Assembly: GCA_963827655.1 (NCBI GenBank)
Contig: CAWHCF010000027.1
Coordinates: 1-46,007, forward strand
Direction of reading: 5' to 3'
Length of the DNA: 46,007 nt
Source of the DNA: an uncultured Acidobacteriota bacterium
Lineage (GTDB): Bacteria; Acidobacteriota; UBA6911
The notes beneath the pieces are model-generated. The model was not told the DNA's origin. It did not search any database and saw only the letters and a program-made list of their open reading frames with translations. Positions 31,794-43,139 of this stretch are shown in pieces. Position numbers and translations under genes: made by a program. The stretch's first letter is position 1. Each line of letters starts with the position of its first letter.

Positions 31794-31870
31794 GGGCCCA
31801 TAGCTCAGTTGGTTAGAGCAGCTGACTCATAATCAGCGGGTCGCAGGTTCGAGTCCTGCTGGGCCCACCA
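31794..31870 (+). tRNA. tRNA with CAT anticodon, most likely tRNA-Ile2 (lysidine)
   Basis: GGGCCCA acceptor stem, TAGCTCAGTTGGTTAGAGC D arm, GCTGA-CTCATAA-TCAGC, GGTTCGAGTCC, encoded CCA; position after rpoD matches E. coli ileX. Confidence 0.93.
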
Positions 31871-31966
31871 CAAAACAAAAGACTTACAGCCCCGACATCC
31901 CACCTCAAAACCCTCAAAACCGGAAATTGTGCCCATTTTTGTGCCCTAACGCTCCCAAAATTTGTT

Positions 31967-33101
31967 CTAAGACGCGGCTTTCTTGATAGTTGCTGGAGCC
32001 GGCCTGGTGGCGATCGCTTCGAGTGCCTGTCTTTTTGCTTCCGTTCGGATATGCGCGTACCGGGAAAGCATCGTCCGGGACACATGTCCCGCGATCGCCA
32101 TGATGGTTTCGTCAGCGGCGCCGCTCTCGGCAAGTTTCGTTATCGCCGTATGCCTCAGGTCGTGAAAACGGATCGTAACCCCCGCCTTCCTGCGAACGTT
32201 TTTCCACGAGGTTTTGAATGACGAGATGGGGCGATCTGGATGGTACTTCCGGCAATCACCAAACGGGAACACATACAGCTGAGAATCGACCGGGCAGACG
32301 TTGGTTTCGTACCAGGTCTTGTGTTCCGCAAGGGTAGAGAACAGTTCAGCGTTGATCGGAATTGTTCTGCCGGTTCCCGCGCTTGTCTTCGATTTACCCA
32401 CTGTGATGATGCGTTTCAGGAAGTCCACCTGGTTCCATCTGAGCGTCCGGATTTCTGACTCGCGCATCGTGGTGTTCAACGCAAGCATGATCACAGGGCG
32501 AATCGCCGGAGACCGGGTCGACGTCAGGTCCATCTTTTCGCCCTTCATTACTTCGGGCACCCGCGCAGCCTGGAGCAATGCTTCCTCTTCCTCTGGTGTG
32601 AGAGCCTGTCCGCAGTTTTCATTTTTTGGAAGTCGGAGCCTCCTCCCGCGCCTCAACTTCAGGCGTACTGCGTCCCCGATTTCATCCATGATGCGAAGCG
32701 CAAACATCACCTCGGCGTTGATGGTGCTTCCCATGCGCTCCTTCCTTCAGGCGGATGTTCTGATATTCGAGAATGATATCGGGGGTAATTTCTATGAGCA
32801 TCATGTCGCCCATGTGGGCATTGAGATGAGCGAGGCGTTGCTTGAGGTAGCGGACACTGTTCTCAGCGCGCCGCAGGCGATAGTCCCTCAGGAGTCCATC
32901 CGCGGCCTGCGAGAAGTTCTGCACTCGCTTGGTCCGGTCCTCGCCGGCAAGCCCGTTGTATCCCTCCTCCAGCTCGCGCCGGCGCTGCTTTTCAGCTTCC
33001 TTTGCCAGGGTTTTACTCGAAGTCATTGCACTCTGGCGGATAAGTTTGTTCGCGAAGTAAAACTTGTACCACCAGACTCTTCCGCGCTTGAACACGCTCA
33101 T
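31967..33101 (-). pseudogene. Tyrosine recombinase/phage integrase, +1 frameshift near 32726
   Basis: MSVFKRGRVWWYKF N-terminus (GGAGG RBS) joins TINAEV..TTMRESEI..KSKT..FHDLRHT..AGH..RYAH. Confidence 0.9.
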
Positions 33102-33263
33102 TTTGATACCTCCTTTGGGCCCCTGAATTCCTCTTAAGACCAACCGCTTCAATCCATTGCTGCCCGATTGCGCCTCGGGATCGGAATTGATGCGAATGTC
33201 GGGAAGGTTCCGTCCATGGATAGCGGGCCCGAGTCTTTCCATGTCCGGGGTCAAAGCGAATCG

Positions 33264-33482
33264 TCATTGGTTTTTTGCAGAGATCGCCGAGAGTTTGCGC
33301 CCCGGCTGAACGACCGCCTGTGTGCTCTGCTCGACGTAAGCCTCGATGTCAGCCAGGTTATAGCGGATGAGGCGACCCAGTTTTACGAATCGCGGCCCCC
33401 TTCGTTCCCGTCTCCAGCGGCGAAGAGCCGCGATTGTGCAATTCAGTGTCTCTGCTGCTTTTTGTTCAGTCAATAGTTGCAT
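33264..33482 (-). CDS. AlpA/HTH_17 excisionase-like DNA-binding protein
   Basis: MQLLTEQKAAETL..LRRWRRERRGPRFVKLGRLIRYNLADIEAY. Confidence 0.85.
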   Translation of the reverse strand: MQLLTEQKAAETLNCTIAALRRWRRERRGPRFVKLGRLIRYNLADIEAYVEQSTQAVVQPGRKLSAISAKNQ

Positions 33483-34023
33483 GTTCCGTCCTCCATTCCC
33501 GGAAATACATCGTCGGGATGTGACACAAGTGCTTCCAAACCTTAAGCTTCCACGATAGGTCGAACCAAGATACTCCAGCAATGGAACACCGAGGTTGTCG
33601 CCGCAACCCCCAGGCGCATCGGTGAAGCCGACTTGGGTCCAGGCTCGGTCATGGCTTCGGCACCGACTGTGCCGGGCCACCGCACGAGTCCAAAAAAACC
33701 CTTCATTCGATAAGAGTGAAAAAAGGCCTCAAAACTTACCCTAGAAAATTTCCACCCTGTCGTTTTTTTACCAGGAAGGTGCCCTCGCGTAATTGACCGA
33801 GAGAATTGGTTCAGATCTCCGGCGTCATGATCGCTAACCCTCGCCTTCTCCAATCCGAGCGCGCGAGGTTTTACTGGCGATCATCTACAAGAACGCAATG
33901 ACTGGTGGGGCATATCTGGAAAGTTACGAATAAGATACAACAGTCACTGGCCCTGGACTTGTCAGAGTTTCTTTGGTGTAAAACGTGACAAAGTGGCTAC
34001 TCGGGCACACCACTTAAGAACGA

Positions 34024-36092: not shown

Positions 36093-36657
36093 CGGATATG
36101 GTAGGGCTCGCTCGCCCATCGCGGCAGTGCACCGAGAATCGCGAGCGCTCGGTTCTGTTCCGTCGCTCAGTTCAGCATTTGCCGCCGTCAGGTGCCCGCG
36201 CCTATGCGGCCCGCGCAGAACCATGCGCGGGCCGATCTTGATGGGAGAACCCTGCGGACCGTCGGGGATTCGTGCTCAAAGACCTTCGAGCCACTTAAGG
36301 ATCGTCGCGTCCGTGCGCCAAGAGACGAGGCAGTCGGACTCATCCAGGACCGAGGAACATCGCGCAAAGTTAACATAAAGCCCGTTCTCAGAACCGAGTT
36401 GCCCCGACTCGAGCTGAAAATGACGCTTGTTTCTCTTATCCACCTTCGACATAGAGGTAGGTGGCGAGGCCGCCAACTAATCCGGTAGTCGAGACCGGCA
36501 GCGGAAAAGGCTCTCTGTATGAGGTCAGCAGAGCCAAGAGTTGTTCCACGCGCTTCTCGAAGAAGGTGTTGACGAAGATCTGCACGGTGGCCCTTTAGAA
36601 TTATCTCATTCTGCTTAGGGGGCAGGCCGGAGGCCTACCCTACTTTGCTAACGCTGA

Positions 36658-36752
36658 AGCGAATAGGCCGAACAAGAGCCGTTTTCCTCGCGCTGCCCCG
36701 GCTGCGGGGTCGGCCCAGTTTCCGATAAGGTGAGGATATTATGCAACTCGAG
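36658..36752. repeat. Direct repeat copy 1: oriIS-like end plus dif-like site
   Basis: First 74 bp identical to 38891-38964; GTTTCCGATAA-GGTGAGGATA-TTATGCAACT. Confidence 0.9.
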
Positions 36753-37340
36753 GGATCTCGTAGGTCAGAACCTCGCCGTCGTCCAGGAACTCGCGGAACG
36801 CGAGCATGTCATCGTAGGCCGCGACCGCATCCTCCACCTCCGGCAAGGCCATGTCTTCGTAGCCTTTCATGCGCGGGCTGAAAATCTGCATGCCGTCCAC
36901 GCCGCGGAGCCAGAGGTGCCGCAGGATCTCGCGGTAACGTTCCCTCGACAGGACCGGAAATTCGAGCTCCGGGGGTTCCGAGACCCAGCGCGTGACCCAG
37001 GGTATCGACTCCTTCTCGGGTGCCCAGCGCTCACCCAGCTTTCCGGCCAGCGAGACCTGGCGCAAGAGCAAGTTGGTGTAGACCTGGTCGACGTGCTGTT
37101 GATCGCGTTTCTCGTCCTTGCCCCGGGACTTCCAGACCCAGGAGGCGGCGCCGTACGCCGTCGGGTTCCAGGCGGTGACCAGCGGCGGCAAGTGGATCGG
37201 CCCCGGTTGCCGCTCCATCCCGGCTGCGGCTCATCGGGCGTCGAAGGCTGCGCGAGCCAGTTGGTCACCGAGCACTTCGGGTAGAACTCCAGGACGGGCG
37301 CGGCGTAGTACGCGCCGAAGAGGTCATAGAACTTCCGGGC
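36739..37340 (-). pseudogene. Fragment of an unidentified protein ending at the dif-like arm
   Basis: Coding-like, frameshifted: EFYPKCSVTNW / PPLVTAWNPTAYG..SRERYREILRHLWLRGVDGMQIF..AYDDMLAFREFLDDG; stop TAA lies in the repeat. Confidence 0.55.
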
Positions 37341-37410
37341 CGGTCAGGAGCATGACTTGTGCCCCGGGTAACTCTGCTGGCGGCATGGTTGCTCGGCTCC
37401 TTATGGTGAT

Positions 37411-37492
37411 GCCGAACGCTGGCGGTGAGCCGCCGCCGGAAGCGTAGGCGAAGCCGAAGCCGGAGGCGGTGGGCTCCAGTCCGTGGTTCGGC
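37411..37492 (-). other. Integron attC recombination site (82 bp)
   Basis: Minus strand: R'' GCCGAAC-5 nt-L'' ACTGGAGC-CCACCGCC...GGCGGCG-L' GCTCACC-6 nt-R' GTTCGGC, then AGGAG and an ATG. Confidence 0.75.
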
Positions 37493-37563
37493 GAGGACTC
37501 GGCCCACAGGATAGACTGCGCATCGAAGCCGACCCCTTCTGCGCTGTGGTCCCCGCCAGGTGT

Positions 37564-38164
37564 CTAGCTCACGCGCCACGTGAACGTGGCTACGGCCCCG
37601 GACTATCTCGAACTGGCGCGGCAGGTCCGGGTAACCCCAGCGCGTCCCACCGCTGGGGGCGAGCTGGGCGCTCTGGTTGTCAAACTGCAACGCCGTCGTA
37701 AACCCGGTGTTTTGCATCGTGGTCGGTTGTCCCGCGTCCTTCGTCAGCCGCTGTGAGTGCACCTGGCAACCCGGCGACGGTGGCGGTCAACGCGTGTGCT
37801 CCTGTATCGCGATCTGCGCTGTCTGGGTTGGAGCCACTGCGTCACCAGCCCGGCCGATCCCATAGGGCCTCCGTGCCCTGGAAGTCGCCTCCACCTCACG
37901 GCGTTGCTCCGCACTGGCCCCATCGTCAATATAGAGGCGCGCCGTGCCGTTGCCGTCATAGAGGGTTGGCCCGGGAAAATAAAACCCCATAGCGAGCGTG
38001 CGCCCACCCAGGGTGACGCTGCCATTGCCTTGCCGGACACGCAGCAGCCAGACGCTGGCGCACCACCCCTGGTCCATCACCATCAACTCCCGCACACCGT
38101 ACCGCAGGGACAGCATATTCCATCTGCAGGTCTCGATAAAGTCTGCCCTCAGGTTCCAAGCCAT
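37564..38164 (-). pseudogene. DUF1326-family protein, multiply frameshifted (cassette gene)
   Basis: MAWNLRADFIETC..YGVRELMVMDQGWC..FPGPTLYDGNGTARLYIDDGASAEQRREVE..TFTWRVS*; AAGGAGG RBS. Confidence 0.7.
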
Positions 38165-38890
38165 GGAAAATGACCTCCTTTGTAGTGTGTGATGTGGTAA
38201 TGAAGAGCCGAACGCTATCTAGACATCCTATAAGAATGTCTCCCCTATATCACCCGCTGATATCTCCGCAGGGTACTATTCGAGTGCTGTAGCCCCTCGT
38301 GATGCGGCCGATCCAAGGGATGGCCCAGCCGCTCAAGGGTTTGACTCGCGCTTGTGGCAATGTACCTGTATACGCAAACTCCATGTCGGCAAATTCCACT
38401 GGATGTTCTTCTGCGCCACGTAGTAGTTCGCGTCAGGCCCATCAGCAAAGGGCCGCGCACCAAAACCGACACCGAGCCCCTCGATGCACAGGTGCAGTCG
38501 CCGCTCTGGCGATTCAGACTGCGGAGCATGTAGATGACGTAGACGGACGAGGCGGCATTGGTCTGGCCATCCGTAGCCAGGGCCGGGTCCGAAGACACAT
38601 TGTTCACCCGCAACATGGTGTTCGATCGCATGCCAAGCGGTGCCGGAGAGGTAGGATTGACCAGACTACCCGCCGCGTTTGACCTCGTCGATGGCCTGGG
38701 CAAAGCCGTCGTTCAGCAGGATGGTAGGATCGCTGGCAGCAAGAGTAAAGCCCGTACATAAACTTGGGGACGCTGTCGTGCATGATGAAGTTGACCGCCC
38801 CACGGGCCTGGTCATCCCGTCTGGAAAAATCTAGACTGATTGTCCCGTTCTTTTAAGAAGCGTAGGTGCACAGCATAATTCTGGTCCTTG

Positions 38891-38985
38891 AGCGAATAGG
38901 CCGAACAAGAGCCGTTTTCCTCGCGCTGCCCCGGCTGCGGGGTCGGCCCAGTTTCCGATAAGGTAAGACATTATGTCAACTCGAG
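38891..38985. repeat. Direct repeat copy 2: oriIS-like end of the IS91-family element plus dif-like site
   Basis: GTTTCCGATAA-GGTAAGACA-TTATGTCAACT; preceded on + by CTTG (CAAG on the transposase strand); 111 bp downstream of the transposase stop. Confidence 0.9.
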
Positions 38986-39096
38986 CGCGCCCGGTCCGAC
39001 CGTTCTGCGGCATCCGATTGGCCGATCATAGACCAAAATTTTTAGGCTGGGATGAAATTTTGCAGGCTTTCGCCACGGCGGCGATCGGGCGGTCAC

Positions 39097-40545
39097 TCAG
39101 ACCGGTTCATCAGGGTGAGAGGACGAGCGTCCCGCTGCTGAGGCGATTGGTGGCGCCCGCGAAGGCAGGCCGAGGCACTCGAGGATCGCCCGGATCGCAT
39201 CCGGTGGATGGATGGCGGCGAGAATCCGCATGCGCCCAAGACAGCGGGGGCACTCGAGAACATCAATGGCCCACACTCGGTGCATTAGCTCGGCCCAGGA
39301 GTAGTTGCGAGGTCGTTGCCGGCAGCCCGATCTGCCTTGCCGGTGTGATCGCTCTCGAGGATTGGACTTCCCACTCTGTGGCCTTGGCGAATCGCCGCCG
39401 GTTCTGCGGTGCGCGCGACAGCCGGAATGGGGAGATGTCTCGGCTTGACGGGGCAGGCTTGGCGGGACGATTTCCGGTCTCGAACGCGCCGCAGGGGCCA
39501 GCACGCCGTGGTACCTTACCAGGTTGAATCTAGGCGGCGGCACGAGCGCCGCGAGCTTGGCCACGAGCTCGAGCGGCTCGAACAGCACGTGAGTCGAACC
39601 GTCCCGCCACGGATGTTTCAGACGGTAGAGCACGCGGCCGTCGGCGAGCAGCGACAGTCGCTCCGTGGCCACCGCCGGCCGCGCACAATAGCGGCAAAGC
39701 CGCTCGAGGCGCTCGCGATCGCGGGCGGCCACGCAGACATTCGCATGGACGTTGATACCCGCTACACTGGCACACCGGGGGCTGCCTGGGACCACGAGAG
39801 CCTCGACGTCGACTCCATCTCCGACGGTCGAGATGCGTTGGCGGGCGCGGGGTCCCGTGGCGATCCGGCCGTGCACCGACGCGCCGTAGAGCTCGGCCAG
39901 GAGCGGCTGATCGCGCCGAGTGGGTCCGCCTCGTCGGGATCGGCCCGGGGCCCGAGCCCGCGCCGCTCGAGCAACGCGAGGATGCGGCGGGCAACACGGC
40001 CGGTCACGCGCGTCACCTCGGCATCGTCGGGTGGGGGTAGCGCGTGGAAGCGCGCGCTCCCGGCCTCGTCGATGGCATAGGCGCCGTCGAGCACCAGCGT
40101 ATGGAAGTGGACGTTCAGATTGAGGGCGCCCCCGAACCGCTGCACGAAGGTGACCGCGCCGCACTGCGCCCCCCGGACTCCACTGCCGGCGCGAACCCGC
40201 TGCCGCAGGGAGCGGAACACGGCAGATGAAGATCTGCAGCACGTCGCGCACCAGACGCGCGTCGTAGGCGAGCCGGTAGCGCAGAGCGAAAGGCAGCGAG
40301 AGCACCCACTGTCGGATGGGGACGGGGGGGCAGCACACGATCGACCAGATGCGCGGCGGTGTCCGCCATCCGGCGCCCGGCGCAGGAGCTGCAAAATCCA
40401 CGACCTTTGCAGGAGAACGCTACAACGCGGTCCTTCCGCATGTCGCGAGTGTCACCCGCAAGAAGCCGTGGGCCAGTACACCGCACTCGAGGAACAAGCG
40501 CAGCTCGCATTCGACGAACCGCGGCACCGGGCGGTCGCGGCGGAA
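39097..40545 (-). mobile_element. IS91/ISCR-family rolling-circle (HUH) transposase, frameshifted and 5'-truncated
   Basis: FLECGVLAHGF, VAFSCKGRGFCSSC, RQWVLSLP, QRFGGALNLNVHFHTLVLDG, LERLCRYCARP, NLVRYHGVLAP, WAELM..DVLECPRC. Confidence 0.9.
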
Positions 40546-40939
40546 GTGACGGCCTAGTGGAGACAGAAAACATTTGCGCGTTCACGAAACCTCCGTGAAA
40601 GCCTCAATAATCCGCACCTCAAACGCCGGCGTATCGGTTCCGGTTGCTCGGTTGACTTGTTATCGTCACCAGCAGAGCCCGAAAGACACATCATCGGTCA
40701 TTATCCAGCGTTCGGCTTTGACGGGCCGAGACCCTCTCCCGGCTTGCCGAGCATGGCGAGAAGTTTCGACGACACACAGGGAGACAGCGGGGGGGCCTCC
40801 TCGAGGAAGAAGCCGAGAAGATCGTGTTCCTCTAACAATAAATGCTCCTTGTTCACATGCGTCCCTCACGACCCTGCTCGAATGCGCGTGGGGCTTTGAG
40901 CCGATTGGTCTGCATCAGCGCCCGTTGTGGGAACCTCGA

Positions 40940-42286: not shown

Positions 42287-42637
42287 TCACAGAGGAAGAT
42301 AGCGAACGATATTATCGAATTCCGTTTCGAGACTGCATGTCACCGTTACCTCAAGGTCATCTATCGCTCGACTGAGTGGCAGTCGCCGCGGCACAACGAT
42401 GACACCCATCATCTTTTCGCCCGCGGCTATCCGATCGGCGGCATGGACGGGCATAGTTTTACGATCGTGGGTGATGATGATGCGCCCGGCCTCCGCTGCC
42501 CATGCCAGTAATTCCGGATCCGTGACGGTACTCAGACCGACCTCATGGGCTGTGAGCGCGTCCAGCTCTGGGATGCGGCGCACAAGACCGCGCAGAATAT
42601 CCTGATCAAAATCCTGATCGATGAGCAGCCGCAGCAT
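42287..42637 (-). CDS. DUF5615 PIN-like toxin
   Basis: MLRLLIDQDF..VGL..DPELLAWAAEAGRIIITHDRKTM..GVIVV. Confidence 0.88.
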   Translation of the reverse strand: MLRLLIDQDFDQDILRGLVRRIPELDALTAHEVGLSTVTDPELLAWAAEAGRIIITHDRKTMPVHAADRIAAGEKMMGVIVVPRRLPLSRAIDDLEVTVTCSLETEFDNIVRYLPL

Positions 42638-42670
42638 GCCGGTCGCAATGTGGAATGCACGGACTCGAGG

Positions 42671-43015
42671 CTATCGCGGCAATGACCACCGGGACAACAA
42701 GCGTTCGCGCATTTCAGCTATTGCTTTCTGGTATTGAGGATCACCCTCAATGCGCTGCTGCACGCGGTCGCTCTCCGCCTCCTGTAGCCGCAAATACTCC
42801 TTCACAGACTCTCGGTGGTTGAGGTAGTAGGTGATGACAGCATAGATATCGGCGAGTTTCAGGGATGGGAATTTATGCGCGATTTGCTCGGCAGTGGCGC
42901 CAAGCTCGAAGTGATGCACGACTGAGTCCAGGCTGACCCGTGATCCTGTTATTCGGATCGTGCCATCCTCGCTTATCGTGAGGGGCACGGTTTGCGTTGT
43001 ATCGGGTGTAGTCAT
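42671..43015 (-). CDS. DUF433 antitoxin
   Basis: IRITGSRVSLDSVV..GATAEQIAHKFPSLKLADIYAVITYYL. Confidence 0.9.
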   Translation of the reverse strand: MTTPDTTQTVPLTISEDGTIRITGSRVSLDSVVHHFELGATAEQIAHKFPSLKLADIYAVITYYLNHRESVKEYLRLQEAESDRVQQRIEGDPQYQKAIAEMRERLLSRWSLPR

Positions 43016-43139
43016 GCAGGTCTCATTATACACTATCAATGCCGGGCGCAGCGGCGCTCATCTGGACGACATGGACAACAGACCTGATAACCAGGCCCCG
43101 CAGGCTGAGATAATTGAAAAACTCAGCTTGATTGAATCT

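Follow-up and report, generated by a model that had tools for sequence, protein, structure and literature searches.

A dif-like candidate Xer site in the ends of ISCR/IS91-like elements from soil Acidobacteriota

The DNA analysed here (the window) is the entire 46,007-nt contig CAWHCF010000027.1 (C27) from the genome of an uncultured Acidobacteriota bacterium (G000; 8.18 Mb in 53 contigs). It contains two direct repeats of 95 bp, 2233 bp apart, which a preliminary description had proposed to join the end of an IS91 rolling-circle element to a site like dif, the core site of the XerC and XerD recombinases, on either side of captured cargo. Judged from sequence comparisons, the repeat is the oriIS-type end, distal to the transposase, of an ISCR/IS91-like rolling-circle element of an Acidobacteriota (Terriglobia-like) chromosome. 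Copy 2 ends a dead copy of this element, and copy 1, a solo end, lies 2.2 kb outside it in a debris-filled island. On balance, we think that the ends of this clade carry a XerC/XerD-type core site of 28-30 bp, some 50-60 nt in from the terminus, that is a mimic of the respective host's dif and is subject to Xer action in some form. For any single use of such Xer action, the probability is well under half.

The direct repeats were borne out by BLAST (96% identity over nt 1-95; Table 1) and by a repeat search, in which 36658-36734 and 38891-38967 matched at 99% over 77 nt with the same spacing of 2233. Copies 1 and 2 are identical from nt 1 to 74 and then diverge inside the central spacer, as had been described, with three changes (GGTGAGGATA in copy 1 versus GGTAAGACA in copy 2); in addition, the right arm of copy 1 (TTATGCAACT) is without one T that is present in copy 2 (TTATGTCAACT). 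The repeat terminates at CTCGAG. Within the identical 74 nt, the two copies have common variants (GCGAATAGG and CGCGCTGCCCC) that are not in the other nine genomic copies. Such clustering of four differences in spacer and arm, next to 74 bases without any, is compatible with exchange or repair at the site, as a post-hoc observation on one pair.

Copy 2 lies just 3′ of an IS91-type transposase gene, as first described, though this gene is decayed. Its product matches Y2_Tnp in Pfam (E 1.4e-21), and its Zn_Tnp_IS91 match (24.1 bits) is under the cut-off of 26.3. Because three-frame translation revealed at least four frame changes and the absence of about 50 N-terminal residues, the gene is a pseudogene. 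The window element is truncated ahead of its 5′ end and its terIS side is absent. The transposase is 38-42% identical to those of ISCR1, ISVsa3 and other IS91-family elements on plasmids, and an intact relative of 527 residues is encoded elsewhere in the genome (C52:175240-176820), within an intact element at C52:175014-177100. The repeat is located approximately 110-205 nt past the transposase stop codon, with the terminus of copy 2 at 38891/38892 and the element body running rightward. This terminus (...GGCTCTTGTTCGGCCTATTCGC, ∼205 nt after the stop codon) resembles by eye those of four plasmid copies (ISCR1, ISVsa3 and two 'IS91 family' elements), which end in ...GGGCGTTTGAACTTCCTATACG or close variants 230-245 nt after the stop, in agreement with the proposed likeness to an ISCR oriIS. 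Some IS91 members have a tyrosine recombinase gene inside the element. No such gene was found here: full copies in Terriglobia relatives, the left boundaries of which were located, are 2.07-2.09 kb long and hold one gene only.

The IS91-type ends in the genome include four diverged families (fam1 to fam4); both window copies belong to fam1 and the intact transposase to fam2. The fam1 end occurs 11 times, twice in C27, five times in C45 and once each in C6, C2, C40 and C31. An outer boundary, GCG(G/A)ATAGG, is common to nine of the 11 copies listed (the exceptions, in C40 and at C45:114033, deviate at their first bases), and beyond it the copies have no flanking sequence in common; this boundary is therefore the element terminus. 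Inward from it, the copies reach 34, 44, 94, 107, 114, 201, 247, 250, 270 and 366 nt. The 95 nt are thus merely the portion kept by solo copy 1, and the claim that homology stops at the dif-like site stands for the window pair but not for other genomic copies, which run 107-366 nt from the terminus. In IS91, CTTG or GTTC abuts the oriIS end. Neither tetranucleotide was found at this end among the flanks of the nine fam1 copies that keep the terminus. The CAAG that had been taken for an IS91 target flank was present in only one of these nine, copy 2 itself, and is offset by one base, so it is not a general feature.

Dense arrays of IS91-type ends in the same orientation occur at C45:97000-119000 (five fam1 ends) and C34:98800-117700 (four fam3 ends), mixed with transposase fragments and pieces of other subfamilies. 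The fam4 end is also present as terminal pieces of 29-37 nt at C21:97976, C2:204775, C3:44809 and C44:20140, and in the end at C31:24700-24770 the terminal GGAACAAAG stretch is partly duplicated internally.

By a wide margin, the best candidate for the host dif is C29:198152-198179 (ACTTCTGATAA-TGTATA-TTATGTAAACT), which is unique in the genome. With up to three mismatches, its arms occurred exactly once per genome in 10 of the 41 genomes searched, G000 included. They were present in 9/24 same-family relatives and 0/16 genomes of other families, with conserved arms and a variable centre, and a reversed-pattern control gave 0 matches. The xerD gene (C29:203424-204287, 371.9 bits) is 5 kb from the candidate and xerC (340.3 bits) is at C26:160601-161563, both scoring above curated cut-offs. 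In five relatives (G041, G042, G045, G049 and G050) the unique dif candidate has another left arm, A(T/C)GTCGCATAA, and that of G047 is of the G000 type. A further conserved site, CATTC(C/T)GATAA-CGGATT-TTATGTCAATT, was seen at G043:C1:4714587 and G050:C5:192416 (loci L139 and L171); the one in G050 is additional to its better dif candidate, and the site may be an element site or a second dif.

Compared with the host dif, the fam1 consensus site (GTTTCCGATAA-GGCAGACA-TTATGTCAACT, spacer 8 bp) matches at 8/11 positions in the left arm and 10/11 in the right, and the dif right arm of one same-family relative is exactly TTATGTCAACT. Across the four families, left arms match the host dif at 8-9/11 positions and the right arm at 10/11 in fam1, fam3 and fam4 and 8/11 in fam2. 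The motif behaves like an Xer core site by sequence, as had been suggested from its likeness to an E. coli arm, but that arm is not the closest; the host's own dif is closer.

A loose right-arm pattern had 101 matches in 8.2 Mb, compared with ∼127 expected from base composition. Seventeen of these had all seven positions of the left-arm core (..TTC.GA.AA) 5-10 bp away and three had six, and the left-core score of the remaining matches peaked at 3/7. From the 101 right-arm matches, we calculated that ∼0.04 bipartite sites are expected by chance, versus the 17 found. One of the 17 is dif, and the other 16 are in IS91-type ends: six in fam1 (spacer 8-9 bp, consensus 8), two in fam2 (6 bp), five in fam3 (6 bp) and three in fam4 (6-8 bp, consensus 8). 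In all four families the left arm begins 49-62 nt from the terminus in constant orientation, with the XerC-like arm facing the terminus and the XerD-like arm facing the transposase. By these comparisons, the dif-like motif is real and not chance.

The central region of Xer sites is 6-8 bp. The Xer core layout (two 11-bp arms, partial inverted symmetry and a centre of 6-8 bp) is present in the family consensus, with spacers of 8 bp in fam1 and fam4 and 6 bp in fam2, fam3 and the L036 type from a relative, and is not kept by the window copies. The long spacers that had been flagged as a caveat are indeed 9 and 10 bp in the window, but these lengths are confined to the window copies; the family consensus is 8 bp and two sister families have 6 bp. 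Because one right-arm base is lost, the site of copy 1 is probably inactive, and given the 9- and 10-bp spacers and this deletion, both window sites are probably inactive by now.

Relatives were collected by scanning one genome per species with the intact fam2 transposase, which gave 76 loci, mostly from Terriglobia metagenome-assembled genomes, plus some from Myxococcota and others. A TTATGTCAAC(C/T)-type box, preceded by a spacer and a left arm, is present in all 22 representative ends (eight families of G000 and 14 loci from nine other genomes, ten genomes in total), on one strand and with a GCGGATA(A/G)G terminus ∼45-65 nt away. Outside the site these ends could not be aligned, and the spacers range from 5 to 10 bp overall. 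Generic dif scoring of the downstream regions of 47 relatives gave no overall separation from shuffles; it did bring out a TTATGTCAACC box that recurs among Terriglobia loci, and gave no candidate for loci like L059, L061 and L062, which are titled Myxococcota or Proteobacteria. Four proteobacterial ISCR/IS91 plasmid ends that were read also had no bipartite dif-like site near the terminus. Therefore, the site is a feature of an Acidobacteriota-associated clade and not of the whole family.

A first strict regular expression found almost no matches in the relatives because their left arms differ. To compare these arms with the dif of each host, 16 sites from seven hosts were scored. In other Terriglobia with the dif left arm ATGTCGCATAA, the left arm of the element follows it (GTGTCGCCGTA). 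Element left arms of the A(T/C)GTCGCATAA hosts, such as GTGTCGCCGTA, match their own dif at 5-7/11 positions versus 2-5/11 for the G000 dif, and fam1-fam4 left arms of G000 match their own dif at 8-9/11 versus 5-7/11 for the dif of the other class. The right arm is at 10/11 in most element families of the other host class, and in G049 the element spacer TGGACG shares 5/6 positions with TGGACA of the host. These results are suggestive of co-variation between element left arms and the host dif.

Read from pairwise comparisons, left and right modules of the ends reassort between families at the site. We compared identity over 55 nt outside the left arm with that over 80 nt inside the right arm, for which shuffled backgrounds were ∼51-55% (means 51 and 55%). 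The end in C43 has a left part that is 82% fam3-like and a right part that is 81% like that of C21, with its other comparisons at background. In two ends (C35:15953 and C26:266272) a fam3 right part (86-89%) is combined with an unrelated left part, and the homology begins at the border of spacer and right arm. Divergence begins only after TTATGTT(A) in C34:117593 and C45:99261, which retain the terminus, left arm and spacer. In the relatives, a solo end in L039 breaks within the spacer and one in L040 after TTATGT. We also compared the window with soil-metagenome contigs of four runs, which derive from other soil organisms, contain at most 0.12 of the sampled words per run and are uninformative for the parts left uncovered; only contigs were used. 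Contigs from two studies match from 38969, in the copy 2 spacer, and have a different left part before it that holds an ACTTCGG-type stretch, and one contig matches up to 38963 and then diverges. Three apparent skips in these contigs (sides of 22-30 letters, single contigs) were not used.

Two complete Terriglobia chromosomes (G041 and G042; loci L148-L169) have four to five full elements each. Discrete units of ∼100 bp, starting 25-28 bp inside the box, account for 27 of the 47 matches in these two genomes. Each consists of a GC-rich palindrome, the dif-like site and the terminus, and the units are at unrelated loci. From their structure, they look like miniature, non-autonomous, transposase-defined derivatives, each with the site. 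The inner boundary of the units had no resemblance to the element left end, and no circle junction was present among the G041 and G042 solo ends listed, none of which is followed by element left-end sequence. The solo units are often clustered within 1-10 kb and are mostly co-oriented per cluster.

Several results weigh against Xer action at the site. Break points are only modestly concentrated there: none of ten truncated ends in fam1 (window copy 1 comes closest, ending at nt 94, which is 4 nt beyond the site; the rest end at nt 34-366), none of 12 in fam4 and three of the 47 rows in G041 and G042, compared with 4-5/14 in fam3. The metagenome contigs are possibly chimeric at repeats. Families of the GTCGC class have left arms that end in CGTA or CGTT and not ATAA, and the right arm of the L035 and L044 families matches at only 6-7/11 positions. 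Co-variation could partly reflect shared history, since insertion sequence (IS) families and hosts are not independent samples. For the dif candidate itself, the cumulative GC skew of its contig flattens ∼12 kb away with no sign change and so gives no confirmation of a terminus, and neither an IS91 end nor a second site was found within 1.5 kb of the candidate in 12/12 genomes.

The alternative that survives best is that the box is a subterminal binding site for the HUH transposase or another host factor, with a convergent or incidental likeness to dif and no role for XerCD. Conservation of the ends is highest in one box, TTATGTCAAC, whose distance from the terminus is constant in 22/22 ends, as would be true of a transposase recognition element. 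In agreement, several families are without a good left arm, the spacers vary from 5 to 10 bp and the ∼100-bp units that make up 27/47 matches in G041 and G042 suggest boundaries defined by the transposase rather than by Xer. However, the site matches the host dif in both arms, in their spacing and in inverted symmetry, all strong bipartite sites except dif itself fall in such ends, and the left arms track host-specific dif bases. The four proteobacterial ISCR/IS91 ends are without a comparable box near the terminus, so it is not general for the transposase family. We consider this explanation unlikely, if deserving of serious attention, and favour a core site used by host Xer proteins.

If Xer proteins act at these ends, host XerCD would bind and recombine the element sites, the element being without its own recombinase. 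XerCD could resolve or integrate double-stranded (tandem or circular) products of rolling-circle transposition, and could recombine element copies, including by integration of a circle into other ends. Recombination between copies would swap the terminal module relative to the body and join ends to foreign DNA. A more elaborate form of this model would make these ISCR-like elements a new kind of Xer exploiter in which two enzymes work in turn, HUH and then XerCD, as a cassette system that combines a transposon origin with a resolution site borrowed from the chromosome. The HUH transposase would start at one oriIS-type end and stop at the next direct end, the released circle would have one dif-like site plus the DNA between the ends, and any other end could then receive this circle at its dif-like site through XerCD. 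The predicted outcome is arrays of end-DNA-end modules with reassorted terminal and body parts. We regard this two-enzyme scheme as speculative and improbable as it stands.

Other candidates were set aside. Integration at the chromosomal dif is unsupported, with no element within 1.5 kb of dif at 12/12 loci. A folded, CTX-like single-stranded site is not indicated, since single-strand folding of the ends gave no energy beyond that of shuffles (z 0.54, -0.20 and -1.75). The phage-type integrase in the window (Table 1) was rejected as the element recombinase because it belongs to the edge of a tRNA-Met island.

A second alternative is that Xer recombination between the sites of the two window copies mobilizes, or recently mobilized, the cargo that they bracket as a 2.2-kb unit. 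In its favour, the repeats are in direct orientation with a complete bipartite site in each, their 74 identical nt have private variants with the four differences clustered in the spacer and right arm, and same-orientation arrays of ends 1-10 kb apart recur on C45, on C34 and in G041 and G042. Against this, the interior consists of debris and a fragment of a conserved hypothetical gene that is 90% identical to its homologue, has one frameshift and is truncated at both ends. The open reading frame (ORF) adjoining copy 1 is 90% identical to residues 272-423, and the homologue extends 63 residues more. The junction of copy 1 with this fragment lies 0-6 bp after the complete right arm and not in the spacer, and the arm is not gene-derived. 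In addition, the whole inter-repeat DNA (2.1 kb) is single copy in the genome, the spacers are unequal (9 versus 10 bp) and outside the 6-8 range, and the copy 1 arm has lost one base. We find this explanation very improbable. By its sequence, nothing functional is captured here and the region is debris of several IS91-type elements; the proposed cargo and working capture unit did not hold up, with truncated gene pieces in the interior, a dead transposase and spacers beyond 6-8 bp.

Chance resemblance within a multi-copy repeat, amplified by IS copy number, is scarcely credible: copies within a family are not independent and the right-arm pattern alone is not enriched (101 versus ∼127 expected), but four families of this genome with flanks at background identity and ∼14 further ends from nine other genomes have the site at the same place, and 17 bipartite sites were found where ∼0.04 were expected.

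A solo end of fam3, absent from the preliminary description, faces copy 1 and is separated from it by 213 unique bases; five to eight further fam3 ends are on C34, C40 and C8. The tRNA-Met and integrase genes, located just after dnaG and rpoD, probably mark one edge of the genomic island in which the IS91 debris lies; the integrase is followed, within 31794-33680, by an HTH_17 (excisionase-like) ORF. Between the repeats, a stretch of ∼45-70 bp at 37411-37511 had very high summed contig depth in all four soil runs (up to 388 in one), with contigs left loose at either side. This stretch, which has one copy in this genome, is perhaps a short sequence conserved or repeated among soil bacteria. At 42287-43039 (minus strand) a DUF5615 ORF neighbours a DUF433 ORF, a pairing that represents a putative toxin-antitoxin-like module.

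Table 1. Coordinates of the repeats, their dif-like sites and other features of the window
Feature	Position	Strand	Basis or remark
tRNA-Met	31794-31870	+	
Phage-type integrase, 255 aa	31967-32734	-	
fam3 solo end	36332-36444	+	terminus 36444, facing copy 1
fam3 dif-like site: GGTTCTGAGAA / CGGGCT (6) / TTATGTTAACT	36368-36395	-	genome-wide site scan
Copy 1, solo terminal fragment of fam1	36658-36752	-	meets gene fragment 0-6 bp beyond right arm
Copy 1 dif-like site: GTTTCCGATAA / GGTGAGGATA (10) / TTATGCAACT	36718-36748	+	sequence comparison with host dif
Copy 1 left arm	36718-36728		
Copy 1 spacer	36729-36738		
Copy 1 right arm	36739-36748		
Internal fragment of conserved hypothetical gene	36748-37340	-	tblastn, residues 226-423 of 486-aa homologue
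Remaining inter-repeat DNA, no intact gene	37341-38890	.	DUF1326 fragment at 37787-38164, minus strand
Copy 2, oriIS-type end segment of fam1 ISCR/IS91-like element	38891-38985	-	shared outer boundary among genomic copies
Copy 2 dif-like site: GTTTCCGATAA / GGTAAGACA (9) / TTATGTCAACT	38951-38981	+	arms 8/11 and 10/11 versus host dif
Copy 2 left arm	38951-38961		
Copy 2 spacer	38962-38970		
Copy 2 right arm	38971-38981		
Decayed Y2 (HUH) transposase gene	39097-40585	-	Y2_Tnp match, three-frame translation

The elements share much with ISCR/IS91 (ISCR1, ISVsa3, which is ISCR2, and plasmid copies): a Y2 HUH transposase with 38-42% identity, one conserved terminus ∼200-245 nt after the stop codon with a ...TTG..C..CCTAT.C pattern, no recombinase gene, a length of ∼2.1 kb and many truncated copies and solo ends. 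They differ in that the four plasmid copies read are without a bipartite dif-like site near the terminus, that the CTTG/GTTC target was not seen beside the fam1 copies, and that the hosts are chromosomes of soil Acidobacteriota. Integrative mobile elements exploiting Xer (IMEX), such as the filamentous phages CTXphi and TLCphi, sit at chromosomal dif and are flanked by dif-type sites. Like IMEX, the elements here pair a rolling-circle HUH protein and a dif-like site, encode no recombinase themselves and would by inference depend on host XerCD; unlike IMEX, their copies are dispersed, have transposon-type termini and were not found within 1.5 kb of dif in 12 genomes. Acinetobacter plasmids harbour pdif modules, each flanked by XerC/D sites in inverse orientation. 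As with pdif, many dif-like sites lie away from dif and the neighbouring DNA reassorts, but here the sites are inside IS ends in fixed orientation, and the window copies and the C45 and C34 arrays are direct. The cer and psi sites of plasmids resolve multimers that arise as replication products. The element sites are like cer/psi in their well-conserved XerD arm, degenerate XerC arm without ATAA and centre of 6-8 bp, and unlike them in that the carrier is a transposon end and not a replicon; an arrangement of accessory sequences was not seen either, though no search was aimed at one.

Rolling-circle transposons of the ISCR/IS91 type are known for capturing genes, and the known Xer exploiters are phages or islands that reside at dif. 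A transposon end with a mimic of the host dif would join these two worlds. An Xer-type site in ISCR-like ends is apparently undescribed so far: we found no description of a Xer/dif-like site in IS91/ISCR ends in the full-text literature, a search that excluded subscription papers and supplements, and the relevant passages of PMC12772301 and PMC7758954 deal with xerC/xerD used as outgroups in trees and with a xerD gene next to tet(X3), and not with such a site. The Xer claim is directly testable by XerC/XerD binding and resolution assays. If it is true, rolling-circle transposons would have a means, supplied by the host, of resolving, integrating or shuffling what they produce. Tens of potential Xer sites would also be placed on a chromosome (∼16 in G000, and 20-27 end copies per genome in the two complete relatives), and sites scattered in this way would bear on deletions, inversions and module exchange.

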